Shown: positions 2,460 to 50,295, numbered from the stretch's first letter. The stretch is 64,000 nt of DNA from Alphaproteobacteria bacterium (GCA_016776605.1 JADHTB010000022.1:714-64713), one strand, 5' to 3'. Notes: generated by a model from the letters alone, not told the origin. Program-made: numbers and translations.

Positions 2460-2472
2460 TGCACGCCGCGCC

Positions 2473-5389: not shown

Positions 5390-5551
5390 AGAGTATCCAT
5401 TAGAATCGAAAGACCATTAGAGCGGTTCCGGGCTGATCCAGTCCGGCGCGATCATCACGGCCGCCGGAATTAGGCTGCTGTCTGCCCTTACGCGATGGCT
5501 AAAATCGCGAAATACCTCCAGACTATATAGCCTGGCCCAGATGGCCAACTC

Positions 5552-11040: not shown

Positions 11041-11165
11041 TCCTAGATATTCTGTATGCCTGGATATTCCCCCGGAAGGAAAATGCTCAGATCTTTAGAA
11101 TTAGTGCAATTTTTCCAATCACTTAGAATCGCTTCGCAATTCTCATTAATTCGGAATTGCTCTAG
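11041..11165 (-). mobile_element. MITE family A copy (11079-11165, hairpin module truncated) fused to a family B-like relic (11041-11078)
   Basis: The minus strand reads TAGAGCAATTCCGAATTAATGAGAATTGCGAAGCGATTCTAAGTGATTGGAAAAATTGCACTAATTCTAAAGATCTGAGCATTTTCC, then diverges into GGGGGAATATCCAGG...CAGAATATCTAGG. The first TAG is the flgH stop. Confidence 0.85.
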
Positions 11166-14525: not shown

Positions 14526-14699
14526 ACTTCCATGATTGGAGCAATTTTCAACCAATTGGAGTCGCTGGCCTGACTTAAGCGATTGATTTAAATTCTATAT
14601 TTTGAATAATCTGGGCACGCTTGGATAAATTGGGCGCTTGTGAAATCAATGAGTTGGCGATCAGTGATCCGCTCTGCTCCGGGCATTGGGGTCGGTCGT

Positions 14700-14839: not shown

Positions 14840-15394
14840 ATGTCGGACGCGAATGTGGCCGAGACGGAAGACGTTGAAGGCAATGAAGAAGCCGAAGCTG
14901 AAGGCGAAGGTGGCGGAAAAAAGAAGCTATCGGGCAAGAAACTGGTCCTGTTCATCGCTTTGCCGTTAATTTTGATTTTACTCGGCGGCGGCGTTGGCGC
15001 CTTTTTTATGCTGTCGGGCGACGATGAACCGGGCGCGGCCGCGGCGCATGGCGAGGGCGGCGACGGGGAAGGGGAGCCAGGCAGTGCCACGGTCGTCTTT
15101 TATGATCTACCCGAAATGCTGGTCAACCTGAACGCGGGCGGCAAACGGGCAAGCTATTTAAAAATTACCGTTGCCCTTGAATTGGAGAATGCCGCGGCCG
15201 TGCCCAAACTGGAGGTGATCTTGCCACGGGTGGTGCACAATTTTCAGGTCTACCTGCGGGAGTTGCGCCTGGAAGATCTGAAGGGGTCGGCCGGCCTGCT
15301 GCGTTTGAAGGAAGAATTATTGATCCGGGTACAGCGGGCGGCGGGCGCGATCAAGATAAACGACGTTTTGTTCAAGGAAATGCTGGTGCAATAG
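14840..15394 (+). CDS. fliL: Flagellar basal-body-associated protein FliL
   Basis: 184 aa. Acidic N-terminus, one TM helix (LVLFIALPLILILLGGGVGAFF), then YLKITVALE...V..F..YLR.L..EDL..S.G...LKEEL. Confidence 0.9.
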   Translation: MSDANVAETEDVEGNEEAEAEGEGGGKKKLSGKKLVLFIALPLILILLGGGVGAFFMLSGDDEPGAAAAHGEGGDGEGEPGSATVVFYDLPEMLVNLNAGGKRASYLKITVALELENAAAVPKLEVILPRVVHNFQVYLRELRLEDLKGSAGLLRLKEELLIRVQRAAGAIKINDVLFKEMLVQ

Positions 15395-15430
15395 AAGGCC
15401 GATTGGATCGCTTTGCCGGCAGAGAGATTT

Positions 15431-15481
15431 TCAATAATTGGAGTCGTAAACGCGACTTAAGTAATTGGTTCAATTGCTCTA
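15431..15481 (+). repeat. Degenerate relic of the MITE family A right end in the fliL-fliM spacer
   Basis: GCGACTTAAGTAATTGGTTCAATTGCTCTA matches the consensus GCGATTCTAAGTGATTGGAAAAATTGCTCTA at about 25 of 31 positions. Confidence 0.5.
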
Positions 15482-15568
15482 TCTAAACAACCCCGAGCGC
15501 ATTTCGATTAACTGTGCGTTAGGGACCATGATCCAGGGGCATAACATAGAGCAGGGACGGGAGATAGT

Positions 15569-16690
15569 ATGGCTGAAGACGATGACGACGAAGAAGTAAA
15601 TGACGACGATGTCGCCGCCGAATGGGCTGCCATGGTCGATGACGACGACGGGGGCGATGACGACGATGCTGCCGCCGAATGGGCTGCCGCGGCCGATGGC
15701 GATGACGATGGCGATGCTTCCGGTGCTGTAAACCGGGTCCTTAACCAGGATGAAATTGATAGTCTTCTAGGCTTTGATGCCGATGGCGACGACGATGGGC
15801 AGCGCCTGGGTATCCGCGCCATTATCAACAGTGCCCTGGTCTCGTACGAACGCCTGCCAATGTTGGAGGTGGTATTTGACCGCTTGGTGCGGATGATGTC
15901 CACGTCATTGCGGAATTTTACCTCGGATAATGTGGAAGTTTCACTAGACAACATTACCTCTATTCGTTTCGGTGACTATCTGAATTCCATTCCCCTGCCG
16001 GCGATGTTGACGGTGTTCAATGCGGAAGAATGGGACAATTACGGGCTTTTGACCGTGGATTCATCGTTGATTTATTCAATTGTGGATGTCCTGCTTGGTG
16101 GCCGCCGCGGCACCGCGGCCATGCGTATCGAAGGTCGTCCCTATACCACCATCGAAATTTCATTGGTGGAGGAGATGGTACATGTGGTGCTGGCGGATTT
16201 AAGCGCTTCGTTTGAACCGTTGAGCCCTGTCAACTTCGTCTTTGACCGGTTGGAGACGAATCCACGCTTTGCCACCATTGCCCGCCCGGCCAACGCCGCC
16301 GTGTTGATCCGCCTGCGGATTGATATGGAGGACCGTGGCGGCCGTCTGGAGTTGTTGCTGCCCTATGCCACGTTGGAGCCGATCCGTGAATTGCTGCTGC
16401 AAATGTTCATGGGCGAGAAGTTTGGCCGCGATGCAATCTGGGAAAGCCATTTGGCCACCGAGCTTTGGAGCACGGATATCGTTGTCGAGGCAGTCTTGGA
16501 GGAGCAGTTTTTGACCATCGGCGAAGTCATGGATCTGGAAGTCGGCAGCACTATGATATTGAATTCAAGCACTGATTCATTGGTTCAACTGCGTTGCGGC
16601 GACGTTCCTCTGCTGCAAGGCAAGATGGGCCGGGTCGGTTCCCACGTTGCTGTCAATGTTACCGATAATTTGTCCAGCGAGGCGCGCTGA
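15569..16690 (+). CDS. fliM: Flagellar motor switch protein FliM with an acidic repeat-bearing N-terminal extension
   Basis: 373 aa. CheY-docking motif LNQDEIDSLLGF. FliM core ERLPMLEVVFDRLVRMM...; C-terminal SpoA-like LQGKMGRVGSHVAVNV. Confidence 0.93.
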   Translation: MAEDDDDEEVNDDDVAAEWAAMVDDDDGGDDDDAAAEWAAAADGDDDGDASGAVNRVLNQDEIDSLLGFDADGDDDGQRLGIRAIINSALVSYERLPMLEVVFDRLVRMMSTSLRNFTSDNVEVSLDNITSIRFGDYLNSIPLPAMLTVFNAEEWDNYGLLTVDSSLIYSIVDVLLGGRRGTAAMRIEGRPYTTIEISLVEEMVHVVLADLSASFEPLSPVNFVFDRLETNPRFATIARPANAAVLIRLRIDMEDRGGRLELLLPYATLEPIRELLLQMFMGEKFGRDAIWESHLATELWSTDIVVEAVLEEQFLTIGEVMDLEVGSTMILNSSTDSLVQLRCGDVPLLQGKMGRVGSHVAVNVTDNLSSEAR

Positions 16691-25551: not shown

Positions 25552-25654
25552 GGCTTGCCTCCGGCCTATGGACGATGACGCCGATAACGACATGCGGGCG
25601 ATCGAAAAATATGCGCTAATACCAATCAGCACCGGTTAGTATAAAGTGGCGGCC

Positions 25655-26920
25655 ATGTCCGCCGCTCCACCCTCCAAAGATCGACGATCCGACAACTTGG
25701 CAGCTATCTCGCCAGGGATTTATCCCGGCTGGATCATGGTGGCTGCTTGCTTCGTGCTGGCTTTTTTTGCCTGGGGCCTGGGGTTCTATGGCCATGGCTT
25801 TTTTATTGCCGCCTTGCGGGCCGAACGGGGCTGGTCGACGGGCCTGTTGTCGGGCGCGGTTGCGTCGTTTTGGTTCGTTGGCGTGCCGGCGGTGGTGCTG
25901 ATCGGGCGGCTGCTGGACCGCTATGGGCCGCGCTGGATTGTCCTGTACGGCGCGGTGGCCATGGGGTCGGCCGGCATATTGGTTGGGCAGGCGACGGAAA
26001 TCTGGCAGATATTTGTCCTGTTCATGATCATGGGGTCGGCCTATCCAGCGCTGGCGACCGCCGCCATCAGCGCCTCGCTGGTGCCCTGGTTCGACCGCCG
26101 TTTGGGTCTCGCACTGGGCATTGCGCTATCGGGTGCATCGGCGGGCGGCGTATTGATGCCACCCGCTCTGGTGCGGTTATCATCGGCGTATGGCTTTGAT
26201 CTGGCCTTGGCAGGTGTGGGCACGGCGATTTTAGTGCTGATAATTCCCCTGGCGCTGTTTGTCCTGCGCCGGCCCCGTAACGCCGGGGAAACGGCCGGGG
26301 AGCGCAAACCGCCAGCCAGTCACAATACGGCCGCGGCGCAACCGGGCATGGGGCACTTTCTAGGCGCGGGCCCATTCTGGCGCATCGCCGCCGCTTCCAC
26401 TCTGGCGTTGGCGGCGCAGGTTGGATTGTTGATGCACCTGTTACCGGCGCTGGAAACCGAATTGGGCCTTTCGGCTGCTGCGTTTGCCGTCAGTGTGGTG
26501 GCGGGCAGCGCCGTGATTGGCCGTTTCGTGCTGGGCGGTCTGAGCGCGCGGTTCTCTTTGCCCTTCCTGGCGGCTGGTTGTTATCTGATCCAGGCGGCGG
26601 GTTTGGTTTTAATCGTTTTGGGCCAGGGGCCGATCCTGCTTTATGCCGGTTCCGCGCTGGCGGGTGTCGTGGTTGGCTGTATCGTCATGCTGCCGCCTTT
26701 GTTGTTGAGCGGCGCATTTGGCGCCAATGGCTATGGTACGGCCTATGGATTAATCAGCGCCATTATGTTCCTCGGCGCCAGCACAACCACCGCCGCGGTG
26801 GGTATGCTGCGTGATATGATGGGCAGTTACACACCGTCTTTTCTACTATTGGCCGGCATGGAACTAACCGCCGCCATTGTCATCACCTGGCGGCGCGCGC
26901 GGTCAAATGGATCACAATAG
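25655..26920 (+). CDS. MFS transporter
   Basis: About 420 aa with 12 predicted TM segments and a DRYGPR-type loop motif (LLDRYGPRW). Start is ATG 25655 or GTG 25646. Confidence 0.85.
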   Translation: MSAAPPSKDRRSDNLAAISPGIYPGWIMVAACFVLAFFAWGLGFYGHGFFIAALRAERGWSTGLLSGAVASFWFVGVPAVVLIGRLLDRYGPRWIVLYGAVAMGSAGILVGQATEIWQIFVLFMIMGSAYPALATAAISASLVPWFDRRLGLALGIALSGASAGGVLMPPALVRLSSAYGFDLALAGVGTAILVLIIPLALFVLRRPRNAGETAGERKPPASHNTAAAQPGMGHFLGAGPFWRIAAASTLALAAQVGLLMHLLPALETELGLSAAAFAVSVVAGSAVIGRFVLGGLSARFSLPFLAAGCYLIQAAGLVLIVLGQGPILLYAGSALAGVVVGCIVMLPPLLLSGAFGANGYGTAYGLISAIMFLGASTTTAAVGMLRDMMGSYTPSFLLLAGMELTAAIVITWRRARSNGSQ

Positions 26921-26936
26921 TCCGGAAATGCTCTAG
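26918..26936. repeat. 19-bp MITE family B-like relic bridging two convergent stop codons
   Basis: TAGTCCGGAAATGCTCTAG (compare TAGAGCCCGGAACTGCTCTAG at 50275). The left TAG is the MFS stop; the right CTA is the fliP TAG on the minus strand. Confidence 0.6.
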
Positions 26937-27739
26937 CCAAAGCTTTTGACCAAGCTGGAGGTAATAAGGGTCCAGCCATCGACCAGGACGAAAAAGATCA
27001 GCTTGAAGGGCAGGGCGATCATGATCGGCGGCAGCATCATCATGCCCATGGACATCAGCACGCTGGCCACCACCATGTCGATAACGATAAAGGGGATGAA
27101 AATCAGAAAGCCGATTTCAAAGGCCCGGCGCAATTCGCTGACGATGAAGGCGGGCACCAGAACCTGCAATGGCGTTTCAGCCACGGTATCGGGAATAGGA
27201 TATTTCGTCATGTTTATGAACACGGTCAGGTCCTTTTCCCGGACATGCTGGATCATAAATCCGCGGAAGGGTTTCATGACGCGTTCAAAGGCCTGGTACT
27301 CGTCGATCTCTTGGGCGATCAGGGGCGCGACGCCGGTTTCGTAGGCTTCTTCGAACACCGGCGACATGATGAAAAAGGTCAGGAACATGGCCAGGCTGAT
27401 CAGCACCGTGTTGGGTGGTGTCTGTTGCACACCCAGGGCGCTGCGCAACAGCGACAGGACGATGATGATCCTGGTGAAGGAGGTAACCATGACCAGGATC
27501 GAAGGCGCCAGGCTGAGAACCGTCAGCAGGGCGATAAATTGTATCACCCGGGCGCTGAGTTGCCCGTCGCCGCCCAGATCCAGGTTCAAGGATTGCGCCG
27601 TGGCGGCCGAGGGCATGAATAGAACCAGGGCGGCCAGCAGCGCCAGCGGCGCCAGCAGACTGATCCGGATGGCCATGCGGGTGGATGCGCTACTGTACTT
27701 GGCGGTTCCTGTTACCTTTGTGACCTCTGGGGCACTCAT
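26933..27739 (-). CDS. fliP: Flagellar export apparatus protein FliP
   Basis: 268 aa. LTVLSLAPSILVMVTSFTRIIIVLSLLRSALG...FIVSELRRAFEIGFLIFIPFIVIDMVVASVLMSMGMMMLPP. Confidence 0.95.
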   Translation of the reverse strand: MSAPEVTKVTGTAKYSSASTRMAIRISLLAPLALLAALVLFMPSAATAQSLNLDLGGDGQLSARVIQFIALLTVLSLAPSILVMVTSFTRIIIVLSLLRSALGVQQTPPNTVLISLAMFLTFFIMSPVFEEAYETGVAPLIAQEIDEYQAFERVMKPFRGFMIQHVREKDLTVFINMTKYPIPDTVAETPLQVLVPAFIVSELRRAFEIGFLIFIPFIVIDMVVASVLMSMGMMMLPPIMIALPFKLIFFVLVDGWTLITSSLVKSFG

Positions 27740-28020
27740 GGGCGGGCACCGCCAACCGGCGTGATGCCCGTTTCAATGACCCGTTCGCCATCCGCTCCCA
27801 GTAAAATCAGATGTTCACGGTCATCGCGGCGGATCAGTACCAGGCGGCGCCTGGGATCAACGCTCAACACCTCGACCACTTCCAGCCGGCCAGAGGGTCC
27901 GCGCTTGCCGGTTTGCACGCCACCCATGCCCCAGCGCCGGGCCAGCCAGGCAAAACCGCCGATCAAGCCCAGCACCACCAGCAGAGCCAGGACAAAACGC
28001 ACATAGTTCGCCCATTCCAT
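27736..28020 (-). CDS. fliO: Flagellar export protein FliO
   Basis: ORF 27736..28200. Start MEWANYVRFVLALLVVLGLIGGFAWLARR at 28020. Single TM helix plus RLEVVEVLSVDPRRRLVLIRRDDREHLILLG. ATGA overlap with fliP. Confidence 0.8.
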   Translation of the reverse strand: MEWANYVRFVLALLVVLGLIGGFAWLARRWGMGGVQTGKRGPSGRLEVVEVLSVDPRRRLVLIRRDDREHLILLGADGERVIETGITPVGGARP

Positions 28021-28328
28021 CACTCGGCACCTTCGCCGCTGGCGGTTTCGGTCACGCCCAGGTCTTCCATCCGCTGTTGCAATTTGTCGTGGGCGCCATG
28101 GATATCGTTTTCCAGGGCCTCTAGCAGTTGTAGGGTTGATTGCAGGCTGGCCGCGTAACCCTGGGCGACTTCCGTGGGCAGGGCGGCAATTTGTTCGCAC
28201 AAACCCTCAAGCACGCCCGTCAGGGGCGCCAAATCGAAGCTCGCCTCGCGGTCCAGATTTTCCCGGGCCGCGATGATGGCGGCGCGAATATGGTTCAATG
28301 CCTGTTCGGGCTGTGGTGCGCTGGTCAT
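28020..28328 (-). CDS. Hypothetical acidic helical 102-aa protein, translationally coupled to fliO
   Basis: TGATG overlap with the fliO start, first gene of the fliO-fliP transcription unit, no recognisable family. Confidence 0.5.
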   Translation of the reverse strand: MTSAPQPEQALNHIRAAIIAARENLDREASFDLAPLTGVLEGLCEQIAALPTEVAQGYAASLQSTLQLLEALENDIHGAHDKLQQRMEDLGVTETASGEGAE

Positions 28329-28521
28329 TTCAGTATACTTTTTCCTGTTTGCCCGATTTTTCGCTTAATTTTACCCTGGCCTGATCCAAACGGGGCGCGG
28401 CCAATTCGCGGCGCCGGCCCGCATGGCGATGCCGCCGCACGAACCTGATGCAGTTATCGCGCTTTATGCTTAACAAAGATTAAATGCCCGGCCGACCCGG
28501 GTGATTGGCGCGCGTTCGCGG

Positions 28522-28537
28522 TTAAGGCTTTATTAAC
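28522..28537 (+). promoter_or_regulatory. Consensus CtrA box upstream of flgB
   Basis: TTAAggctttaTTAAC is a perfect TTAA-N7-TTAAC in the fliO-operon/flgB divergent region. Confidence 0.6.
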
Positions 28538-28609
28538 GGCTATGGAGCGAATATGGCGGAACCACCGAAAGGCGGCGCGGATGCCGTTGTTGGCAAGGAT
28601 CAAGGTGCT

Positions 28610-29017
28610 ATGACAGTAAGCGATATGAGCTACTTTAAGGCGTTGAACACGCGCATGACCTGGCTGACCGCGCGTCAGCAGGTCTTGGCCGAGAATGTCG
28701 CCAACGCCAATACACCGGGTTTCCTGTCCAAGGATCTTGCGGAACCGAACTTTCGCGATTTGCTGCGCAAAAGCTTGGCCCCTGTCGCTTTGTCACATAC
28801 CTCCGAAAGGCATATCCAGGGGATTGGGAATACCAGCGCCGTGAAGTTCAAGGTTGAGAATTCCGACGAACCTCCCGACAAGTCCGGCAACAGCGTGACC
28901 CTGGAAGCCGAGATGATGAAGGTTTCGCAATCCGTGGCCGACCATGTGCTGATGTCCAATTTGTACAAAAAGGGCATGGGCCTGTTGCGGATAGCCCTTA
29001 GCCGTCCGTCGCGTTGA
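28610..29017 (+). CDS. flgB: Flagellar proximal rod protein FlgB
   Basis: ORF 28553..29017. ARQQVLAENVANANTPGF is the FlgB signature. I prefer ATG 28610 (MTVSDMSYFKAL) because ATG 28553 is only 16 nt after the CtrA box and 28610 gives the usual ~135 aa. 28553 remains possible. Confidence 0.85.
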   Translation: MTVSDMSYFKALNTRMTWLTARQQVLAENVANANTPGFLSKDLAEPNFRDLLRKSLAPVALSHTSERHIQGIGNTSAVKFKVENSDEPPDKSGNSVTLEAEMMKVSQSVADHVLMSNLYKKGMGLLRIALSRPSR

Positions 29018-29070
29018 TTGACGGATGTCGGCGGCGTTTGGCATTGGCCTGGTTTGGGAGTAACGGCTGA

Positions 29071-29478
29071 ATGGATTTTGATAAGACTATACAGATTTCG
29101 GCTGCCGGCTTGCGGGCGCAGGGCGTGCGCATGCGCATTATCGCGGAAAACATCGCAAACGCTTCGACCAAGCCATTGGCGCCGGATCAGGATCCCTACC
29201 GGCGCAAGTTGATCAGCTTCAAGAACGAACTGGACCATAAATTAGGCGTCCATATGGTTGCCGTTGCCGACATTAGCAAGGATAAAACGGAATTCACCAA
29301 ACGCTTTGAACCCGGCCATCCCGGCGCCGACCGAGAAGGCTATGTGAAGATTCCCAACGTCAACGGCATGATCGAGATGATGGATATGCGTGAAGCGCAG
29401 CGCAGCTACAAAGCCAACATCAAGGTGATCGAGGCGGCCAAGCGGATGATGATGCTCACGATCGATTTGTTGAAATAG
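29071..29478 (+). CDS. flgC: Flagellar rod protein FlgC
   Basis: 135 aa. ISAAGLRAQGVRMRIIAENIANAST...GYVKIPNVN...EMMDMREAQRSYKANIKVIE. Confidence 0.95.
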   Translation: MDFDKTIQISAAGLRAQGVRMRIIAENIANASTKPLAPDQDPYRRKLISFKNELDHKLGVHMVAVADISKDKTEFTKRFEPGHPGADREGYVKIPNVNGMIEMMDMREAQRSYKANIKVIEAAKRMMMLTIDLLK

Positions 29479-29554
29479 GGCGCCCGGTGGCGGCGCAAAT
29501 TGATGCCGCGTCCGGCCGGGAGATCTCGCGCCGGCGCTAGAGGAGAACAAGAGA

Positions 29555-29872
29555 ATGGATGCTAAGGTCGTAAATGCCTCAATCGCTTACGTTGAAGCGC
29601 TGAAACGGTCCATGGACGACGGCGGAACCGCGCCACAGCAGGGGACGGACGCCGGATCAGGCTTTGCCGATATACTGCGGGATACGATTTCGGGCACGAC
29701 GGCCGCGGTCAAGGGCGCCGAGACAGTGAGCATTCAGGCCGCCGCGCAACAGGCCAACATCACCGATGTGGTAACGGCGGTCTCCAACGCCGAAATGGCA
29801 TTGGAATCCGTGGTCGCGGTGCGCGACCGGGTCGTCCAGGCCTATCAAGATATTCTGCGTATGCCCATTTAG
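29555..29872 (+). CDS. fliE: Flagellar hook-basal body complex protein FliE
   Basis: 105 aa. C-terminal TDVVTAVSNAEMALESVVAVRDRVVQAYQDILRMPI. Confidence 0.9.
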   Translation: MDAKVVNASIAYVEALKRSMDDGGTAPQQGTDAGSGFADILRDTISGTTAAVKGAETVSIQAAAQQANITDVVTAVSNAEMALESVVAVRDRVVQAYQDILRMPI

Positions 29873-29892
29873 GGCGGTTTGAGGGGCTAATC

Positions 29893-30159
29893 ATGAGTGT
29901 GCCGGACGTTCTCGACATTGCGCGAGACGCTATTTTTACCCTGCTGCTGATCTCGTCACCCATCATGGGGGTCGGCTTGGCGGTTGGCCTGATCATTGCC
30001 TTGGTGCAGGCCCTGACGTCGGTCCAGGAAATGACCCTGGTGTTCGTGCCGAAGATTTTCGCCATTTTTCTGGCGCTGCTGGTTTTTCTACCCTTCATGA
30101 TTCAAAATCTGACCTCTTTCATGGACCGGATCGCCCAGCGCATCGTCAGTTTATCTTAA
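29893..30159 (+). CDS. fliQ: Flagellar export apparatus protein FliQ
   Basis: 88 aa with two TM helices. LISSPIMGVGLAVGLIIALVQALTSVQEMTLVFVPKI. Confidence 0.93.
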   Translation: MSVPDVLDIARDAIFTLLLISSPIMGVGLAVGLIIALVQALTSVQEMTLVFVPKIFAIFLALLVFLPFMIQNLTSFMDRIAQRIVSLS

Positions 30160-30301
30160 TACCCGCTATCAGTTTGGGATGCTTCGCATGACGGTTTTGC
30201 AGGTTTTTTCCGCCAGGATGGTGACGTGTAACGCCGTCCAAGGCATCCGCGGACCCGCCGTCCAGGCCGCCTGTCCCGATTGCGGGTACTAGGCGGCGGC
30301 G

Positions 30302-31066
30302 ATGTTGGGGCAAGTCCTGCCTGCGGAAATATTCGCGTTCATGCTCGTATTTTCGCGCATCGGCGCCGCTGTGATGCTTTTGCCCGGCATTGGCGAAAAC
30401 TATGTCTTCGCCCGTATCCGCCTTTCTCTGGCGCTGGCCCTTACCCTGGTCATGTACCCCCTGGTCCGGACTGAATTGCCGGTAATGCCGCCCTCTCCCC
30501 TGGGCTTGTTCATCCTGATCGCCGGGGAAGTCATCATCGGTTTATTTATCGGCGGCGCCTCGCGCCTTTTAATCTCCAGCCTGCATGTCGCCGGCGTCGT
30601 CATAGCCTTTCAAAGCAGCTTGGCGTTCGCCCAGACCGTTGATCCCAACCAGGGCACTCAAGGCGCCGTCATGAGCGCCCTGATGACCATCACCGGCGTG
30701 GTGCTGATTTTTGTATCCGGCTTGCACATGTTGTTATTAATCGGCATTCGCGACAGCTATACAATGTTCCCCGCCGGAGACGCGCCCCCGATTGCTGATT
30801 TTGCCCAGTTGGCGGTGTATTTGGCAGCATCTTCATTCAATGTCGGTTTGAAGATGGCCTCGCCTTTTATCGTTTACGGCCTGATTTTTTATATTGGCCT
30901 GGGCATTCTGCAGCGCCTGATGCCCCAGGTGCAGTTGTTTTTCATCGCGGTTCCGGCGCAGATGATGATGGCGTTTCTGGTGATCACGTTGGTGTTTTCG
31001 TCGACGCTGATGGTTTTCCTGCATTATTTCGAGGAAAACGTCATTCTATTCACGGCGGGGCGGTAG
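30302..31066 (+). CDS. fliR: Flagellar export apparatus protein FliR
   Basis: 254 aa polytopic protein. FMLVFSRIGAAVMLLPG..., positioned between fliQ and flhB. Confidence 0.9.
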   Translation: MLGQVLPAEIFAFMLVFSRIGAAVMLLPGIGENYVFARIRLSLALALTLVMYPLVRTELPVMPPSPLGLFILIAGEVIIGLFIGGASRLLISSLHVAGVVIAFQSSLAFAQTVDPNQGTQGAVMSALMTITGVVLIFVSGLHMLLLIGIRDSYTMFPAGDAPPIADFAQLAVYLAASSFNVGLKMASPFIVYGLIFYIGLGILQRLMPQVQLFFIAVPAQMMMAFLVITLVFSSTLMVFLHYFEENVILFTAGR

Positions 31067-31069
31067 CCG

Positions 31070-32173
31070 ATGTCAGATGATCAGGATAAATCCGAAAAGA
31101 CAGAAGAGCCGACCGGGAAGAAGATTGACGACGCCTTCAAGAAAGGCCAGGTGCCGAAAAGCCAGGAAGTAAACCACTGGTTCATGCTGGCCGGCGGTGC
31201 CGCGGTGCTTGGTCTGTTCTCCACCGACATGGCCAATGGCGTGATCGTTAATTTTACCCAGTTTCTGGCCGCGCCGCATACAATCGCGACGGACGCGGGT
31301 CAATTGCTTCAAATGGGGCAAGCTCTGGGCTTCAAGGTCGTGGGCTTTCTTGCCGTGCCATTGGGGGTTCTGGTGGTCGCGGCGCTGGCCGGCAACTTGT
31401 TGCAGCATCGCCTGGTTTTTTCACCCAGCAAGATGGCGCCGGAGCTGTCCAAGCTATCCCCCCTGAAGGGAGCGAAAAAGATATTCGGCTCCAAGGGGGT
31501 GATTGATCTACTCAAGGCAGTCGCGAAAATTATTGTCATAGGCGGGCTGGTGGTCAGCATCGTTTGGCCGGATTTGGCCGATTTGCGCCACATGCCGACC
31601 ATGGAATTGACTGCGATCGGGGGCTTCATCCGGCATGAAGCGCTAAAGATAGCGCTGGCGGTTCTGGCGGTGATGGCGGTGGTGGCGGCCGCCGACAGCT
31701 TTTATGAGCGCTATTCCTGGTTTGAGAACCTGCGTATGAGCGTCAAGGATCTAAAGGATGAAAGTAAACAGGCCGAAGGCGATCCGCACGTCAAGGCGAA
31801 GATCAGACAATTGCGCAGCGAGCGGGCACGCACCCGCATGATGCAGGCGGTGCCCGATGCGGACGTGGTGATCACCAACCCGACCCATTTTGCCGTCGCC
31901 CTGAAATACGATGGCGAGGCCATGGCGGCGCCCAAGGTGGTGGCCATGGGCCAGGACAACGTCGCCCTGCGCATCCGTGAAGTAGCCGAGGAAAACAATG
32001 TCCCCATCGTGGAAAACCCACCCCTTGCCCGTGGCCTGTACGCGGCGGCGGAATTGGACCGGGAAATACCCACTGAATTCTTCAAGGCGGTGGCCGAGGT
32101 TATCGGCTATGTCATGCGCCTGCAGGGTAAAATGGCCCGGCGCTCTGGCGCCACGGGGCGCGGCCGCCCTTGA
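31070..32173 (+). CDS. flhB: Flagellar export switch protein FlhB
   Basis: 367 aa. SEKTEEPTGKKIDDAFKKGQVPKSQE and the NPTH autocleavage site (VVITNPTHFAVALKY). Confidence 0.95.
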   Translation: MSDDQDKSEKTEEPTGKKIDDAFKKGQVPKSQEVNHWFMLAGGAAVLGLFSTDMANGVIVNFTQFLAAPHTIATDAGQLLQMGQALGFKVVGFLAVPLGVLVVAALAGNLLQHRLVFSPSKMAPELSKLSPLKGAKKIFGSKGVIDLLKAVAKIIVIGGLVVSIVWPDLADLRHMPTMELTAIGGFIRHEALKIALAVLAVMAVVAAADSFYERYSWFENLRMSVKDLKDESKQAEGDPHVKAKIRQLRSERARTRMMQAVPDADVVITNPTHFAVALKYDGEAMAAPKVVAMGQDNVALRIREVAEENNVPIVENPPLARGLYAAAELDREIPTEFFKAVAEVIGYVMRLQGKMARRSGATGRGRP

Positions 32174-32192
32174 TGTGGACTCCGGGGCGGCG

Positions 32193-32297
32193 CTAGAGCA
32201 ATTACGAATTAATGAGAATCGCGAAGCGATTCTAAGTGATTGGAAAAATTGCTCTAATGCTAAAGATCTGAGCATTTTCAGAATGAAAATGCTCTAG
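32193..32297 (+). mobile_element. MITE family A, full 105-bp copy (module 1 with TIRs TAGAGCAATT/AATTGCTCTA plus hairpin module GAGCATTTTCagaatGAAAATGCTC)
   Basis: CTAGAGCAATTACGAATTAATGAGAATCGCGAAGCGATTCTAAGTGATTGGAAAAATTGCTCTAATGCTAAAGATCTGAGCATTTTCAGAATGAAAATGCTCTAG. It differs at 3 of 105 positions from the inverted copy at 39745-39849. TA on both flanks. Confidence 0.9.
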
Positions 32298-32348
32298 GCC
32301 GTGGATGGCCAGATAGGTTGGCCAAAATAGGCATATGGACGTAAGCTC

Positions 32349-32364
32349 GTTAACCATAAATTAC
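32349..32364 (-). promoter_or_regulatory. Near-consensus CtrA box (reverse orientation) upstream of the CckA-like kinase
   Basis: GTTAAccataaaTTAC has one mismatch to GTTAA-N7-TTAA and ends 22 bp upstream of ATG 32386. Confidence 0.35.
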
Positions 32365-32385
32365 TGGCAAGGCAGATAGCGGAAA

Positions 32386-34920
32386 ATGGCGGCAATCACG
32401 GACGATCATCAGGCGGAGCAAAAGGCGATCCTGCCCAGGGTCCGGCCTCTGCGTTTGTTGCGTTGGGTTGCCGCGGTGCTGGCCTTGGTGGCAGGCACCG
32501 CCTGCCTGTTGTTGCTGGTGGTGGAGAACGATCTCCATGATAGCGTCGTTTTGTCCGCCGCGGCGCTCGCCTTGGTGGCCAACGCCGGCCTGGCGTTAGC
32601 GGCCCTGATACCGGATGCCCGCGAGGCTCAGGTCCATCTGCTATCGGAAATGATGGGTCAAAGCGGCGAGGGCCAGATGGTCACGGGCCGCGATGGCCGG
32701 ATGTTATATATGAACAAGGCGGCCGAGGGCTTTTTTGGCGGCGGCGGACGGCGGGTCGATCTGGCCCAGCTTGCCGGCGACGAAAGCGCGGTTGCCCAGA
32801 TCTTGCGTCGTCTGCAGGCGGACGCCCTGTCCGGGGCCAGTAGCCAGGACGAATTTCGCCTGACCCTGCCAAACGGGGAAATCCATGGCCTGGAAGTGCG
32901 GGTCCATCCCATCGGCAATCCCGCCGACAAGGTGGCCTGGTATCTGGCCGAGGCAACGGCGCGGCAGGAATTGCGCGAAGTGTTGCGCAATGAGCAGGCT
33001 TTGTTGACGGATTTTCTGGATAATGCGCCGGTCGGCTTCTATTCGGTGGACCAGGAAGGGCAGTTTATCCTTTCCAATAATACCCTTGCCAATTGGCTGG
33101 GCTATCGGCCGGACGAGTTGGTGGCGGGGCGGGACCTGCACAGCGTGCTGGTCAGCGACAGCGCGACCCTGCTGCCGGGTCAGGGCGCCACGGCGCAGGG
33201 TGAGATGGAAGGCGCGGGTTATTCGAACCGCTATTGGGACGTCACGTTTCAGGCCCGGGACGGAGAGACCTTTCAGGCTCAGGTCACGCAATCGGTGGTC
33301 GGCGATGCCGCCAAGGGTGAGGCGCGGAGCCGCTCGGTGGTGCGCAACCTGTCATTGGAACGCGAACGCCGCAGCGCCCTGCAAACGGCGGAACGCCGCT
33401 TCCAGGAATTTTTTGATCATGCCCCGGTGTCGGTGCTGCTGTTGGACGCCAATGGGGTAATCCAGGAAGCCAATGTTACCTTTACAGCGCTGTTGCCCGA
33501 GGGTGAGACGGCGGCCGAGCGGTCATTGTTCGATTTCGTCAACGAAGATGACCGTGAAGACGTGGCCAGGCAATTGCGGGCGGCCTGGGCCAACGAGCCG
33601 GCCAGCGGGCCGTTGGAGGTTGCCTTGTTCGCCGGCCCGCAGCAACGGCAGATGGAACTTTATGCCTCTGGCATGACCGATGCCAAGGGCGGCGTTTCCG
33701 GCATTTTGCTGCATCTGATTGACAATACCACGCAGCGGAATCTGGAACTGCAATTTGCCCAGTCGCAAAAGATGCAGGCGGTGGGTCAGTTGGCGGGCGG
33801 CGTGGCCCATGATTTCAACAATCTGCTGACCGCCATGATCGGCCATTGCGATTTGTTGTTGTTACGCGCCCGCCCAGGCGACGAAACCTTTCCTGATATC
33901 ATGCAGGTGAAACAAAACGCCAACCGGGCGGCCAATCTGGTGCGTCAGTTGCTGGCGTTTTCCCGGCAGCAGACCTTGCGCCCCAAGGTTCTGTCCTTGA
34001 CCGATGTGCTGGCGGAATTAACCCATCTGGTGCGCCGCCTGATCGGCGAAAATATCGAACTGCGGATCGAACATGGCCGCGACCTCGGCCTGGTCAAGGT
34101 CGATCAGGGACAATTCGAACAGGTCGTGATCAATTTGGCCGTCAACGCCCGTGACGCTATGACCGAGGGCGGCATACTGCACATCAGCACCACCAATGTG
34201 TCGTGGCAGGAGGCGTTTGATTTAGGCAACGGCCTGATCAAACCGGACGAATATATCAAGGTGCAGGTCAAGGACACGGGTAAGGGCATCAAGAAGGAAG
34301 ACATGGGCCGGATCTTCGAGCCCTTTTTTACCACCAAGCTGCCGGGCACCGGGGCGGGTTCGGGCACCGGCCTGGGATTGTCCACGGTGTTCGGTATCGT
34401 TAAACAGACCGGGGGTTATATTTTTCCGGAAAGCGACACCGGCACCGGCACGACGTTCTCGATTTATCTGCCCCGCTATATGCCCACGGTGGACGACGTC
34501 GTCGCCGCCGACCGCGATGAAGAAGAGGACGCGCCGCCCAAGGATCTGACCGGCAAGGGCAAAATTCTGTTGGTGGAGGATGAGGAAGCGGTGCGCATGT
34601 TTGCCGCCCGTGCCCTGCGCAACAAAGGCTATACGGTGTTGGAGGCTGATTGCGGCGAGGCCGCCCTGGCGCAATTCAACGAGCAGAAGGGCGATATTGA
34701 TTTGCTGATCTCTGACGTGGTGATGCCGCAGATGGACGGTCCCACCCTGATCCGTGAGGTGCGCAAGCAGCGCCCCGATCTGAAAGTGATCTTCATCTCC
34801 GGCTATGCCGAGGAAGCGTTCCGCCGCAACCTGGATCCTGACAGCGAATTCGAACTGCTGCCCAAGCCGTTTTCCCTGAAGCAGCTGGCGGGCCGGGTGA
34901 AGGACGTGATCGGCAGTTAG
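32386..34920 (+). CDS. cckA: Hybrid sensor histidine kinase/response regulator, probable CckA orthologue
   Basis: 844 aa. N-terminal TM helices, PAS repeats, H-box GGVAHDFNNLLTAMIGHCDLLL, RQLLAFSRQQTLRPKVL, HATPase region. The receiver has LLISDVVMPQMDGPTL and FISGYAEEAF...LLPKPF, which from memory is close to Caulobacter CckA. Confidence 0.55.
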   Translation: MAAITDDHQAEQKAILPRVRPLRLLRWVAAVLALVAGTACLLLLVVENDLHDSVVLSAAALALVANAGLALAALIPDAREAQVHLLSEMMGQSGEGQMVTGRDGRMLYMNKAAEGFFGGGGRRVDLAQLAGDESAVAQILRRLQADALSGASSQDEFRLTLPNGEIHGLEVRVHPIGNPADKVAWYLAEATARQELREVLRNEQALLTDFLDNAPVGFYSVDQEGQFILSNNTLANWLGYRPDELVAGRDLHSVLVSDSATLLPGQGATAQGEMEGAGYSNRYWDVTFQARDGETFQAQVTQSVVGDAAKGEARSRSVVRNLSLERERRSALQTAERRFQEFFDHAPVSVLLLDANGVIQEANVTFTALLPEGETAAERSLFDFVNEDDREDVARQLRAAWANEPASGPLEVALFAGPQQRQMELYASGMTDAKGGVSGILLHLIDNTTQRNLELQFAQSQKMQAVGQLAGGVAHDFNNLLTAMIGHCDLLLLRARPGDETFPDIMQVKQNANRAANLVRQLLAFSRQQTLRPKVLSLTDVLAELTHLVRRLIGENIELRIEHGRDLGLVKVDQGQFEQVVINLAVNARDAMTEGGILHISTTNVSWQEAFDLGNGLIKPDEYIKVQVKDTGKGIKKEDMGRIFEPFFTTKLPGTGAGSGTGLGLSTVFGIVKQTGGYIFPESDTGTGTTFSIYLPRYMPTVDDVVAADRDEEEDAPPKDLTGKGKILLVEDEEAVRMFAARALRNKGYTVLEADCGEAALAQFNEQKGDIDLLISDVVMPQMDGPTLIREVRKQRPDLKVIFISGYAEEAFRRNLDPDSEFELLPKPFSLKQLAGRVKDVIGS

Positions 34921-35138
34921 AGCAATTCCGAATTAATGAGAATCGCGAAGCTATTCTAGAGCAGTTCCGGGATATTCTGGTCCATTTGATGGCGCCCCTA
35001 AGCCATTCTGGTGCGTTGCGCCGCTTGCCCGATGCACCACATCGCGCTGCGCAACGCGCCTACCCGAATGGCTTAGGGGCGCCATCAAATGGACCAGAAT
35101 ATCTCGGAACTGCTCTAAGTGATTGGAAAAATTGCTCT
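34918..35138 (+). mobile_element. MITE family A module-1 copy interrupted by a family B element (nested insertion)
   Basis: TAGAGCAATTCCGAATTAATGAGAATCGCGAAGCTATTC-TA-[B]-TA-AGTGATTGGAAAAATTGCTCT. The uninterrupted copies read ATTCTAAGTG at this point. The first TAG is the cckA-like stop. Confidence 0.9.
34957..35117. mobile_element. MITE family B, full copy (157-bp core with 50-bp terminal inverted repeats, flanked by a TA duplication)
   Basis: Left arm GAGCAGTTCCGGGATATTCTGGTCCATTTGATGGCGCCCCTAAGCCATTC; the right arm is its reverse complement with one mismatch. The centre carries its own GCGTTGCGC/GCGCAACGC inverted repeat. Confidence 0.9.
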
Positions 35139-35154
35139 GCTTTTAAGAGTCTGG

Positions 35155-35568
35155 TTAAGAGTCTGGGCGCATTTTCTTCGCATGCGCTCTGGCATCGCTG
35201 CCCATGACGATCTGCCGGATGATGTGGGCGATGTACCAGACGGCGTAATAGCCCGAAGCCAAGAGCCCGCCGCCCTTCCCCCCGCCGCCCTTCCCCCCGC
35301 TGCCCGTACCATTGTAGGGGCCGCCGGAATTCGCCCGGTACGGCCCGACCCTGATGTTCTGAAATAAAATGTCGAGGACACCGGCAAAGCGTTTGCGGCA
35401 GGTCAGGCAGTGATAGATGCCCGGCCGCGTGGTTTGGCTGTGAATGGTCCGGATCGCCTCGCGCTCGCCGCAATGGGGGCAAAAGGGACCATCGGACCAA
35501 TGGGCGCAGTCAAGGTTGCCCAGCGCCTCAATCTGATAATGGATGTTGACCTTCGGATCTTCCACCAC
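35155..35568 (-). pseudogene. Remnant of an IS1595-family transposase (zinc-ribbon N-terminus only, internally rearranged, no DDE domain)
   Basis: 137-aa ORF. WSDGPFCPHCGEREAIRTIHSQTTRPGIYHCLTCRKRF is the Zn_Tnp_IS1595 pattern. A GKGGG GKGGG stretch comes from a 15-bp direct repeat. The tail AVWYIAHIIRQIVMG resembles the TAW..H.IR.AM helix. It abuts the nested MITEs. Confidence 0.5.
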
Positions 35569-35652
35569 GGGCGATTCCCCCCGCTTATTGATAAGACCAT
35601 GTGACCGGGCAGGTCAAATACATTGCTGTCCAACGTGATGGTAAATGGACCG

Positions 35653-35667
35653 GAACATTTTTCGAAC
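35653..35667. promoter_or_regulatory. Alphaproteobacterial SOS (LexA) box upstream of recA
   Basis: GAACatttttcGAAC is a perfect GAAC-N7-GAAC, 146 bp upstream of ATG 35813. Confidence 0.75.
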
Positions 35668-35720
35668 ATAGATGAAAATCCGTCATAACATCAACGCCTT
35701 AGTAGCCTATTGCCAGACCG

Positions 35721-35735
35721 GAACAAAAAGGGTAC
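35721..35735. promoter_or_regulatory. Second, imperfect SOS box upstream of recA
   Basis: GAACaaaaaggGTAC has one mismatch and lies 78 bp upstream of the recA ATG. Confidence 0.5.
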
Positions 35736-35812
35736 AGTGATTGGGTTGTTGGATTTCAATCTTTGCCCCCGAATTGAACATGGGGGGCGGTTATGGGATA
35801 AGGGAGCAGGCT

Positions 35813-36958
35813 ATGTCGGTCGGAAATTTACGCTTGGTGGAGCAGAACCAGATGGATAAGGAAAAGGCGTTGGAGCAGGCCTTGGCGCACATTGATCGTG
35901 CCTTTGGCAAGGGTTCGGTGATGAAACTGGGCCAGAATACCACTGCTGTCGAGATTGGCTCGGTTTCCACCGGCTCCCTGGGGCTGGACATCGCGCTGGG
36001 TATTGGCGGTTTACCAAGGGGCCGGGTGGTCGAGGTCTATGGTCCGGAAAGCTCGGGCAAGACCACCTTGACCCTGCATGTGATCGCCGAGGCGCAAAAA
36101 AAGGGTGGCATTTGTGCTTTTGTCGATGCCGAACATGCGCTTGATCCCGCCTATGCCCGCAAGCTGGGCGTGGATGTGGATGAATTGTTGATTTCGCAGC
36201 CTGATACGGGCGAACAGGCCCTGGAAATTGCCGATACTCTGGTCCGTTCGGGGGCCATTGATGTGCTGGTGATCGATTCCGTCGCGGCCCTGACGCCACG
36301 CGCGGAGTTGGAGGGCGAGATGGGCGATACCCATGTGGGCCTGCAGGCCCGCTTGATGAGCCAGGCCTTGCGTAAATTGACCGGTTCCATCTCCAAATCC
36401 GGCTGCATGGTGATCTTCATCAATCAGATCCGCATGAAAATTGGCGTTATGTTTGGCAGCCCCGAAACCACGTCCGGTGGCAATGCCTTGAAATTTTATG
36501 CCTCCGTGCGCCTGGATATCCGCCGTATTGGCGCCTTGAAGGACAAGGAAGAAATTGTTGGCAACCAGACCCGTGTGAAGGTGGTCAAAAACAAGGTGGC
36601 CCCGCCCTTCAAGGTGGTGGAATTTGACATCATGTACGGTCAGGGCATTTCCAAGACCGGCGAGCTGCTGGACCTGGGTGTCAAGGCCGGCGCGGTGGAG
36701 AAATCCGGTTCCTGGTTCTCCTATGGCGATCAGCGGATCGGCCAGGGACGGGAAAATGCCAAACAATTTTTATCGGAACATAGCGATATCGCCGATGAAA
36801 TCGAACGCACGATCCGCGCCAACGCCGGCCTGATCGCCGAAGCCATCATTGGCGAGCCGATCCCATCGGCTGATAACGCTGGTGACAATGACGCAGATAA
36901 TAAGGCAGACAATAGTGCAGACAATGGCCCGAATACCGCGCTGGGCGGCAACCTATAG
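35813..36958 (+). CDS. recA: Recombinase RecA with an extended (A/G)DN-repeat acidic tail
   Basis: ORF 35741..36958. Start [40 protein letters not shown] at 35813 follows AGGGAG. Walker [11 protein letters not shown]-terminus [23 protein letters not shown]. Confidence 0.97.
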
Positions 36959-36976
36959 GGCCATTTTAAATTCATC

Positions 36977-37004
36977 GGGGGCGCGTTCACGGGGACGCGC
37001 CCCC
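36977..37004 (+). terminator. Hairpin after recA
   Basis: GGGGGCGCGttcacggggaCGCGCCCCC followed by ATTGTCCTCATTCATT. Confidence 0.55.
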
Positions 37005-37051
37005 ATTGTCCTCATTCATTATTTCCATAAACAGCGGTCGTCTTGATAGCC

Positions 37052-37231
37052 ATGGCAAAATATCACGTAACCCTGAAATCAAGCCTGTCGGACGGGGATC
37101 TCTATTGGGTCGCCGATGTAACGGCTGAAAACGAAGATGCCGCCATGGTCGCCGCTGAAGCGTTGTTCACGCGGCAAATGAAAAACGCCACGGAATGGTC
37201 GTTTACGGATGCAGATGTGGAACGCCTTTAA
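37052..37231 (+). CDS. Hypothetical 59-aa protein
   Basis: ORF 37043..37231, ATG at 37052 (MAKYHVTLKSS...). No recognisable family. The coding status is uncertain. Confidence 0.35.
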   Translation: MAKYHVTLKSSLSDGDLYWVADVTAENEDAAMVAAEALFTRQMKNATEWSFTDADVERL

Positions 37232-37263
37232 AGCATCGGCCTTTAAAGCCATCGGCCTTTAAT
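37224..37263. repeat. About 2.6 tandem copies of a 15-16-bp unit that contains the TAA stop of the 59-aa ORF
   Basis: GCCTTTAAAGCATCG / GCCTTTAAAGCCATCG / GCCTTTAAT. The stop TAA is at 37229-37231 in copy 1. Confidence 0.85.
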
Positions 37264-37316
37264 ACAATCCGTCTGCCCTGAGCCATCGGTGGTTTGCCCA
37301 GCCAGGCAATCAATTT

Positions 37317-37380
37317 CTAGAGCAATTCCGAATTAATGAAAATCGCGACGCGATTCTAAGTGATTGGAAAAATTGCTCTA
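37317..37380 (+). mobile_element. MITE family A, module 1 only (64 bp)
   Basis: CTAGAGCAATTCCGAATTAATGAAAATCGCGACGCGATTCTAAGTGATTGGAAAAATTGCTCTA with TA at both ends. Confidence 0.9.
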
Positions 37381-37434
37381 ATACTCCGCCTAAATGCAGT
37401 GTGTCGCCTAAAGGTACGGCTTAAAGGCATCGCC

Positions 37435-37470
37435 TATAACTATGGTTTAAATTTGGTAACCATAGTTATA
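37435..37470. promoter_or_regulatory. Perfect 13-bp inverted repeat inside a ~180-bp extremely AT-rich leader
   Basis: TATAACTATGGTTtaaatttggtAACCATAGTTATA, 145 bp upstream of the first pseudo-receiver gene. Candidate operator. Confidence 0.45.
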
Positions 37471-37614
37471 AAAGCTAAGTAATTATTACTAAAATAAAAT
37501 TAATCAGTATTGATAGCGTTTATTTAAATAATTAATACCAGAATTAATCCAATTCACTATTGGTGCGGTTGTCCGGGTCGGGAAACACGGCAAAACCATA
37601 ACTGACGGTGAACT

Positions 37615-38544
37615 ATGCGTAGAGCAGAATACGAGAACGCGTCTATATTACATTATGATGCCCGGCGACGAGTCGGCAAACGCACCTGTGCGGCCCTGGG
37701 GGAACTGGGTTTTCGCCGCATAGAGAACGTGGATAATGCCGACACGCTGGCCAAATTAATGCGCTCACGGCAGTTTGATCTGGCGGTTTATGGCAACGAT
37801 GCCGCGGCGGCCGGATCATTGGAATCGATTCGGCAGACGCGCCACTACGACAAGTCCTCGGATCCCTATACGCCGATGATCCTGATGACCTGGAATGCCG
37901 CCTCGGAAGTGGTGCGCAAAGCCTTGAATACGGGTACCGACCAGTTGTTGTTGTGGCCGTTTTCAACCCGGCAAATTGGCGCCCGTGTGGAGGCCTTGAT
38001 TACGGCACGCAAGCCTTTCATCGAGACCGAGGATTATCTGGGACCGGAACGCCGCGACCCAACGGCACGCCGCCTGTACTCAAAATCGATCGAGGTGCCC
38101 AATGCCTTGCGGGCCAAGGTCCAACGGCGTCCCGATTTGGCGCCCGGCATTGAGGCCATTCAGGCGGCTAGGGCCAGCTTGGAAAGGATTAAGATGGGAA
38201 ATATTGCCAACCGCATTTGCGCGGCGGCAAAAATGTTGCGCCGACATGGCGAAAATATTGGTTTTCTCCAGGATCTGGCGGTAGACGAATTGGCCTCCAT
38301 TCAAAAATCACTCGGTGTCATCCGAAAGGCCTTAGAGGTATTGCAGCAAGATCATAAACAGTCATTCTGCGACGCAGTGGACCGGCTGGCTATACAATTG
38401 AGCCATTCGGCGCCGGTTTTGGATTTGAAGGGCTTGGCTTTGTTGGAGCAGGCGGCCATGGCCCTGCGGGTGGCAATCGACATGGAAGCGACACCGACGA
38501 AAAATACCGCCCCTGCCACGGCTGGGACATCTACCGTAAGTTAA
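37615..38544 (+). CDS. Pseudo-receiver (CheY-like, non-phosphorylatable) protein with a GPERR arginine-rich motif and an unknown helical C-terminal domain; paralogue 1
   Basis: 309 aa. The receiver-like N-terminus ends beta3 as FDLAVYG (Gly where CheY has D57) and has LLLWPF (Trp where CheY has K109). Then ARKPFIETEDYLGPERRDPTARR, VPNALRAKV and a helical C-terminus (LALLEQAAMALRVA). Confidence 0.65.
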   Translation: MRRAEYENASILHYDARRRVGKRTCAALGELGFRRIENVDNADTLAKLMRSRQFDLAVYGNDAAAAGSLESIRQTRHYDKSSDPYTPMILMTWNAASEVVRKALNTGTDQLLLWPFSTRQIGARVEALITARKPFIETEDYLGPERRDPTARRLYSKSIEVPNALRAKVQRRPDLAPGIEAIQAARASLERIKMGNIANRICAAAKMLRRHGENIGFLQDLAVDELASIQKSLGVIRKALEVLQQDHKQSFCDAVDRLAIQLSHSAPVLDLKGLALLEQAAMALRVAIDMEATPTKNTAPATAGTSTVS

Positions 38545-38562
38545 TCCGGCGGTCAGACCGGC

Positions 38563-38597
38563 GAGAGCAGTTCCAGAATATCCCGGAACTGCTCTAG
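38563..38597. repeat. Minimal MITE family B copy (termini only, 35-bp hairpin)
   Basis: GAGAGCAGTTCCagaatatcccGGAACTGCTCTAG, 19 bp after the paralogue 1 stop. Confidence 0.8.
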
Positions 38598-38765
38598 TTC
38601 TTCGTTTCCCACCGAGGGCTGGCTGTGTGATGACCCCTATCCTAACTGATATTTAAGTATTTCCGGGCAACCTGTCTCAACCCTGGACGTCCAAATAATG
38701 ATGTTTCGGGGCAGGTTTTTGGTATCTGGGATGTCATCCCGAGCTAGGTTGTGGGTTATTAATCA

Positions 38766-39722: not shown

Positions 39723-39744
39723 ACAACCTCGTGAGAACTCACAT

Positions 39745-39849
39745 CTAGAGCATTTTCATTCTGAAAATGCTCAGATCTTTAGAATGAGAGCAATTTTTCC
39801 AATCACTTAGAATCGCTTCGCGATTCTCATTAATTCGGAATTGCTCTAG
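39745..39849 (-). mobile_element. MITE family A, full 105-bp copy in inverted orientation
   Basis: Its reverse complement differs at 3 positions from 32193-32297. The terminal CTA at 39846-39848 is the TAG stop of the acyl-CoA ligase. Confidence 0.9.
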
Positions 39850-50277: not shown

Positions 50278-50295
50278 AGCCCGGAACTGCTCTAG
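50275..50295. repeat. Minimal MITE family B relic (21 bp)
   Basis: TAGAGCCCGGAACTGCTCTAG. The first TAG is the hydrolase stop codon. Confidence 0.7.

Follow-up and report, generated by a model that had tools for sequence, protein, structure and literature searches.

The locus at positions 26918-26936, between an MFS transporter gene and the convergent gene fliP, raises the question of why the ends of small repeated elements should fall exactly on stop codons. An earlier note on this DNA had claimed that MITE termini coincide with the stop codons of six genes, and had left it open whether the elements prefer stop codons or are simply tolerated there. We addressed this question in the whole 64-kb stretch of DNA (hereafter, the window) and in related genomes and metagenomes, whose loci are designated by L numbers. 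The window covers a flagellar/CckA region of an alphaproteobacterium, with 58% G+C over its full length, and DNA identical to it is carried by the marine metagenome assembly JACKQG01 and by one ENA assembly.

All of the junctions quoted in the earlier note are present in the sequence exactly, and the six genes were confirmed by ORF listing and Pfam. They encode the MFS transporter (25646-26920, plus strand), FliP (26933-27739, minus strand), FlgH, a CckA-like kinase with PAS, HisKA, HATPase and receiver domains, an AMP-binding acyl-CoA ligase and an alpha/beta hydrolase. In five of the six the Pfam match runs to near the C-terminus (to residue 258 of 259 in FlgH, and to 14 residues short of the end in the acyl-CoA ligase); in the MFS protein it stops at residue 379 of 424, 45 residues before the C-terminus. 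Rfam and tRNA scans of the window returned no matches, including no Rfam family for the repeats. By crude gene calls the window uses 24 TAG, 19 TGA and 15 TAA stops, so that TAG is the commonest, which is unusual for a proteobacterium of 58% G+C and is found despite a five-fold depletion of CTAG. TAG stops are also common in L187 (7 of 19), L188 (7 of 20) and L189 (10 of 18), in L187 even though no element lies at the junctions examined in the region. Two further repeats were noticed in the window: a tandem array at 5334-5390 with four copies of the 14-nt unit ATGGCCGGATAGTT, which starts in the last codons of ORF 3522-5345, includes the TAG stop of that ORF and is followed on its 3′ side by element-like fragments; and, near the 5′ end of a FliM-like ORF (15569-16690), 2.4 copies of a 57-nt (19-codon) acidic repeat at 15580-15716.

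The window contains about 11 related copies, relics and fragments of the element, eight of them with reconstructable insertion sites. The elements are small (16-263 bp), non-coding and multi-copy, with inverted terminal repeats GAGCAnTTCC.../...GGAAnTGCTC; their termini follow the pattern GAGC(A/G)nTT... at the start and ...GCTC at the finish, with TA on both flanks. They therefore begin with G, as had been supposed, and end with C. The sub-families comprise A+B (103 bp), A only (63 bp), C (approximately 160 bp) and minimal units of 16-30 bp. Two complete 103-bp A+B copies are present. One, E3 (32194-32296, plus strand; target CGC-TA-GGC, that is, CTAG), lies away from stops between flhB and the CckA-like kinase gene, whereas in the other, E7 (39746-39848, minus strand; target ATC-TA-GGA, again CTAG), direct reading places the TAG of the A-left terminus (CTA at 39846-39848) on the acyl-CoA ligase stop. 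E1 (11044-11164, minus strand) is a composite of an A unit and an aberrant distal part, located between TA at 11044-11045 and TA at 11163-11164, and the TAG of its A-left terminus (CTA at 11162-11164) reads directly as the flgH stop. E4 (34918-35191, plus strand) is an A+B2 composite whose left TAG (34918-34920) terminates the CckA-like kinase gene; a 161-bp C-type MITE with 56-bp arms is nested within it (34957-35117, plus strand), in the TA of ...GATTC-TA-AGTGATT. E5 (37318-37380, plus strand) is an intergenic A-only copy of 63 bp at TTC-TA-ATA (CTAA). E8 (50275-50294) is a relic of 16 bp, GAGCCCGGAACTGCTC, with a TA on either side; the alpha/beta hydrolase gene stops at its left TAG (50275-50277), and 4 bases past its right end a convergent ORF terminates.

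The right end of E4 has TG in place of TA, some 19 bp of the flank having been deleted, and the convergent ORF 35155-35568 (minus strand) now terminates inside the element, its last six or so residues replaced by 11 element-encoded ones. This MITE-encoded tail ends ...VMGSDARAHAKKMRPDS, and relatives, which give weak Zn_ribbon_IS1595 matches, end ...IMGSDARPPRRP. Other copies do not coincide with stops. A degenerate A2+B2-like copy, recognized by eye against variants, lies between divergent genes (14539-14643, plus strand), and another (15420-15521, plus strand) begins 25 bases past the TAG that ends ORF 14840-15394. A left-end fragment, TAGAGCGGTTCCGGGCT... (5418-5445, plus strand), also away from stops, resembles the left ends of the full-length IS and of the L152 C variant. 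E6 (38563-38596), located 19 bases after a TAA stop, is a minimal 30-bp palindrome made up of the two terminal repeats only, whose left duplication has decayed to GA. The same palindrome, GAGCAGTTCCAGAATATCCCGGAACTGCTC, is TA-flanked at unrelated loci (window 38563-38596 and L137 315-348), and a similar unit occurs at L136 573-605. This suggests that a unit as small as this may itself be mobile rather than a product of decay.

The element at the locus that raised the question (E2) had to be delimited anew. The string at 26918-26936 is TAGTCCGGAAATGCTCTAG, which had been taken for a 19-bp relic with the MFS stop at its left end and the fliP stop at its right. We found instead that it belongs to a longer remnant of about 37 bp on the minus strand (26899-26935; GCGGTCAAATGGATCACAATAGTCCGGAAATGCTCTA), which matches the right arm of C-type copies over its full extent, the C-type ends used being those of L152, L145, L176 and E4 of the window. 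The internal AATAG is common to the remnant and the L152 variant. Because the alignment continues through 26918-26920 as internal element sequence, the MFS stop TAG located there (plus strand) is neither a terminus nor a TA-duplication junction. The fliP stop (TAG on the minus strand, 26933-26935), by contrast, is a true terminus and TA junction by direct reading and Pfam, as had been claimed, with the outer TA at 26934-26935. The list of genes whose stops are element termini thus keeps flgH, fliP, the CckA-like kinase, the acyl-CoA ligase and the hydrolase, and loses the MFS gene. In L180, the closest relative (92% identity), the MFS gene ends ...CGCGGTCA TAA (...RRARS), four codons earlier than in the window. 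The window gene shares GCGGTCA with L180 and continues as element sequence thereafter, with four additional codons (NGSQ); these seven bases (26899-26905) constitute a 7-bp microhomology with the MFS 3′ end. A deletion at this microhomology removed the original TAA and joined the end of the MFS gene to the interior of a MITE arm.

We assign the repeats, from their sequences, to the MITEs of the IS630/Tc1-mariner superfamily. Comparison of filled and empty sites proved the target duplication to be the 2-bp TA that the earlier note had presumed: uninterrupted A units read GCGATTC-TA-AGTGATT, and the copy interrupted by the nested C element reads GCTATTC-TA-[C element]-TA-AGTGATT. TA flanks were present on both sides in 20 of 20 paired elements. 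A 4-bp CTAG duplication, of the IS5-like kind, was considered and ruled out, since the C of GCTC stays with the element where the left flank is T or G, the element's C and G persist beside differing flanks in general, and in the nested copy TA alone is duplicated. An identity as RAYT-mobilised REP/BIME sequences was likewise rejected, as the elements have a TA duplication and the related transposase is of the DDE_3 type. That transposase is encoded by a complete relative of about 1.07 kb at L120 483-1551, inserted at a CTAG target and with the ends TAGAGCGGTTCCGA... and TAGAGCATTTCCGAATTATTCTGG, whose two overlapping ORFs match HTH_23/HTH_Tnp_IS630 (weakly) and DDE_3 (E = 3.9e-31). It is because this relative with matching ends encodes a DDE_3 transposase that we classify the small elements as IS630/Tc1-mariner MITEs. 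The distribution of the filled and empty sites also supports mobility, as the E3 site is element-free in three relatives and the flgH stop is empty in three. An alignable empty E3 allele was sought in the relatives, where the intergenic DNA proved too diverged to show a single TA.

A scan of a genome collection with one genome per species used a degenerate pattern, and the matches listed are mostly due to chance. They included Magnetovibrio blakemorei MV-1 and several MAGs from marine Rhodospirillaceae, where elements of about 1.07 kb share the terminus, and two further MAGs, CB11b_AW.37 with the A family and OFTM58 with the C family. None of the matches listed was a full-length IS on JACKQG01 contigs, in which repeats assemble poorly. 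Acidobacteriaceae MAGs including Terracidiphilus (L008, L015, L039, L044, L067, L085 and L090) carry a different multi-copy element with the same terminus, TAGAGCATTTCCGGAATA, which indicates that the terminal motif is common to IS630-type elements across phyla. These genomes host several families of small TAG...CTA elements. At L188, for example, three other TA-flanked mini-palindromes (GATCAAACAGC...GCTGTTTGATC, GCGCAAC...GTTGCGC and GAATTGTTT...AACAATTC) lie in tandem at approximately 2560-2820, after the TAG of the kinase (stop at 2819-2821).

To quantify the coincidence we used a metagenome scan that recovered at least 79 loci, mostly from the window's own assembly; the census thus describes element-containing contigs and not a closed genome. 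After duplicates and internal junctions were dropped, 95 distinct outer termini remained, drawn from the window together with contigs of related metagenomes and MAGs. At 44 of these 95 termini the terminal TAG ended a reading frame of 90 or more open codons, while the other two frames gave 5 and 7 (binomial P = 5e-12). Ten upstream ORFs were sampled and all ten were Pfam-matching genes, with the domain reaching the end of its profile beside the C-terminus in nine. At L032 7434 (MAG CB11b_AW.37), where the stop of a short-chain dehydrogenase is an element terminus, a 38-residue tail extends past the Pfam domain, and in this case the stop may have been displaced. At least one stop was touched by 14 of the 20 elements with both ends identified, and four of the 20 had stops on both sides, belonging to convergent genes. 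Such genes must once have shared a single CTAG or CTAA, which implies an ancestral 2-nt (TA) overlap of their two stop codons. Both-sided cases include L189, with genes at 2319-2702 (plus strand) and 2801-5332 (minus strand), as well as L102, L136, L154 and L157. A tendency for the A-left end to face the stop, seen at three of five sites in the window, was gone in the pooled data, where the A-left end adjoins stops at about 7-9 sites and the B end at about 5-6.

The sequence context of the termini was strongly biased. Viewed from outside, the base before the TA was C at 69 of 95 termini (73%) and T at 20 (21%), in equal proportions at stop and non-stop termini. The reconstructed targets of the paired elements were CTAG (12), TTAG (4), CTAA (3) and TTAT (1), so that 19 of 20 fit YTAR, and CTAG accounted for 60% of them vs. 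approximately 2% of all TA sites. CTAG is itself about five-fold depleted in the window, where base composition predicts 236 occurrences and 43 are present, 11 of them at element junctions. The unoccupied sites comprise 21 within coding sequences, 6 in intergenic DNA and 5 at stops. When 290 kb were considered, stop codons accounted for 25 of the 57 non-genic CTAGs that carry no element. Since CTAG is depleted and about half of the CTAGs outside coding sequences are stops, we consider it probable, at roughly 85%, that the C-TA-G preference of an IS630-type transposase, combined with the loss of insertions within genes, explains the coincidence. On this account the alternatives left by the earlier note are only partly right: stop codons are not preferred per se, and what appears to operate is a preference for C-TA-G together with the removal of intragenic insertions.

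The MITEs would be mobilised in trans by an IS630-family DDE transposase that cuts at TA, strongly favours the palindrome C-TA-G and duplicates the TA. With the G and C at the element's two ends, both junctions read CTAG and TAG faces inward on each strand. Insertions within genes would be lost, and about half of the surviving non-coding CTAGs are amber stops preceded by a codon ending in C, where insertion into the TA of the stop leaves the protein unchanged, as can be seen for FliP, FlgH and the CckA-like kinase. As a result, a stop is touched by about 45% of termini and by about 70% of complete elements. Where convergent genes shared a CTAG or CTAA, the element separates them and gives each its own TAG, and later internal or flanking deletions generate relics and, occasionally, remodelled C-termini (four additional amino acids in the MFS protein; the small convergent ORF at E4). 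Target preference alone may not account for everything, as a residual stop excess of about two-fold remains when termini are compared, one by one, with views of unoccupied non-genic CTAGs (44/95 vs. 27/114, Fisher P = 7e-4). This gap could be filled by selection against insertion in 5′ regulatory DNA, or by small genes misclassified as intergenic.

The residual excess would also be expected if stop-adjacent hairpins were useful to the host, as terminators, stabilisers of mRNA 3′ ends or ribosome-release contexts, such that positive selection rather than target choice placed the elements where we find them. Complete elements do fold strongly (-39.3 kcal/mol, z = -6, for the AB copy E7 and -116.8 kcal/mol, z = -18, for C), and terminator-like roles for MITEs have been deemed conceivable in reviews (PMC10969869). 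However, the intrinsic-terminator signature of a G+C-rich hairpin followed by a U-tract was not found in any element in a scan of 26000-41000, which gave within the elements only a weak 6-pair stem in E4, and the stems of the A+B elements are AT-rich. Both orientations adjoin stops at similar rates, non-stop sites show an identical C/G flank bias, and flgH retains its own G+C-rich terminator-like hairpin beyond E1. The only relic folded, that of fliP/MFS (26895-26945), has no stable fold (z = +1.5 and +1.75), which contradicts the proposal in the earlier note that every gene concerned gains a strong hairpin. We therefore regard positive selection for the hairpin as an improbable origin of the pattern. 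A terminator or stabiliser role finds no support here, and a modest one is possible.

Mariner/Tc1 elements generally require only TA, and insertion into the TA of a stop codon is indeed silent, so one could imagine that these elements enter any TA and that only the insertions into stop codons and neutral spacers survive. We consider this very improbable. In the window, 5 of the 8 reconstructable insertion sites are stop codons, but stop TAs constitute only 8.8% of the non-genic TAs (P = 2e-4), which confirms that the ends meet stops more often than TA availability predicts and leaves survival alone short of the observed frequency. If CTAG sites are taken as the null instead, approximately 53% would be expected at stops (P = 0.42), and the excess in the window disappears once the target preference is given. 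The predominance of CTAG among the targets, and a C at the -1 position that is as frequent at non-stop as at stop sites, also argue against insertion at any TA.

Orthologous genes indicate that insertion occurred at pre-existing stops. FliP ends in KSFG directly before the stop in all relatives compared. In L180 a different full-length element directly follows the fliP GGC TAG, while in L182, L183 and L185 the gene ends GGC TGA with an element-free stop; as the element-free orthologues use TGA, a TAG or TAA intermediate must be assumed. The kinase ends in VKDVIG(S/A) in the window and in the relatives compared. In L187 its stop is TGA and element-free; in L188 it is the TAG followed by the mini-palindromes described above; and in L189 it is a TAG with an oppositely oriented element behind it, the far terminus of which is the TAG stop of a convergent small gene. 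The right flank in L189 begins with A, and the ancestral kinase stop there was therefore TAA. FlgH orthologues from three relatives end in DVIFPF followed by TAA, TGA and TAA, respectively, all element-free. Conversion of TAA to TAG is thus likely at flgH and at the L189 kinase, and the comparison with empty sites, which had been proposed as a way to learn whether the ancestral stops were TAA or TAG, gives TAA at the latter, TGA in the empty fliP orthologues and a mixture at flgH. The identical C-termini of the orthologues place the insertions exactly on the ancestral stop position, and bear out the idea that insertion into a TAG or TAA stop regenerates TAG with the ORF intact. Moreover, the same kinase stop is occupied by different elements or orientations in the window, L188 and L189, and has been hit independently in different lineages. 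It is least credible of all that the TAGs are premature stops left by insertions into 3′ coding sequence, or that the ORFs are unreal, because, although elements can remodel gene ends (the MFS gene, the tail of ORF 35155-35568, and the dehydrogenase tail at L032), FliP, FlgH and the kinase end at exactly the orthologous codon, and Pfam domains reach their profile ends by the C-terminus in 5 of 6 window and 9 of 10 census genes.

The combination of a CTAG preference with G...C ends might go further and represent an evolved 'safe-harbour' strategy, in which amber stops are the main landing pads and the elements feed back on the host; this we hold to be doubtful. Were it true, insertion would convert TAA stops to TAG, overlapping convergent stops would be pulled apart, and lineages would escape by switching to TGA. 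TGA is found in element-free orthologues of fliP, of the kinase and in one of the three of flgH, against an otherwise unusually high use of TAG. In a weaker version, stop-adjacent hairpins may have been co-opted as 3′-end RNA elements.

Under the preferred reading, C-TA-G targeting with loss of intragenic insertions, the sequence preference of a transposon can render it nearly invisible to selection, and the present elements provide a quantified example: insertion at an amber stop costs the host nothing, and nearly half of the element ends are there. The insertion is silent, yet the subsequent decay is not always so, as in the MFS gene and ORF 35155-35568. Annotators should expect TAG stops fused to repeats, C-terminal tails encoded by MITEs, and assembly breaks at gene ends. 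Whether CTAG depletion, stop-codon usage and transposon load are linked is testable, and such a link is absent from the reviews and surveys PMC10969869, PMC3184786 and PMC11602168, which hold no statement on stop codons or IS630.

We conclude that these repeats are a new MITE family whose association with stops, quantified here, has been under-reported and is largely predictable from known transposon biology. The Correia elements of Neisseria are also flanked by TA, and we know of no CTAG preference for them. They resemble the window repeats in being MITEs with hairpin-forming transcripts that adjoin or are fused with ORFs (PMC2229807), and differ in their terminal repeats and in their IHF and RNase III features. 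The pneumococcal BOX repeat similarly provides the stop of 36 coding sequences without evident truncation (PMC3049150), but it is modular (boxA/B/C) and not IS630-derived, and no mechanism of stop regeneration through TA or CTAG has been proposed for it. A closer parallel is RUP (repeat unit of pneumococcus), an IS630-derived MITE of about 107 bp with a TA target, high copy number and stops in all frames, mobilised by IS630-Spn1 (PMC2229807); unlike the window MITEs it is reported to favour IS elements, its sequence is unrelated, and the cited literature reports no CTAG or stop-codon association for it. IS630 of Shigella sonnei itself duplicates 2 bp at the target 5′-CTAG-3′ (PMC2577343, Table 1, citing Tenzen and Ohtsubo, 1991), and the elements described here share with its family the TA duplication, the CTAG target, a DDE_3 transposase with an N-terminal HTH and short terminal inverted repeats. 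They differ from it in being non-coding, 16-160 bp long and very dense, with the autonomous partner seen only in related genomes and metagenomes. Finally, IS870 of Agrobacterium vitis and ISMt1 also use a CTAG target whose TAG serves as a stop, according to the account of Fournier et al. (1993) cited in PMC13630536. As described in that account, the TAG ends the element's own transposase ORF, whereas here it preserves the stop of the host gene.
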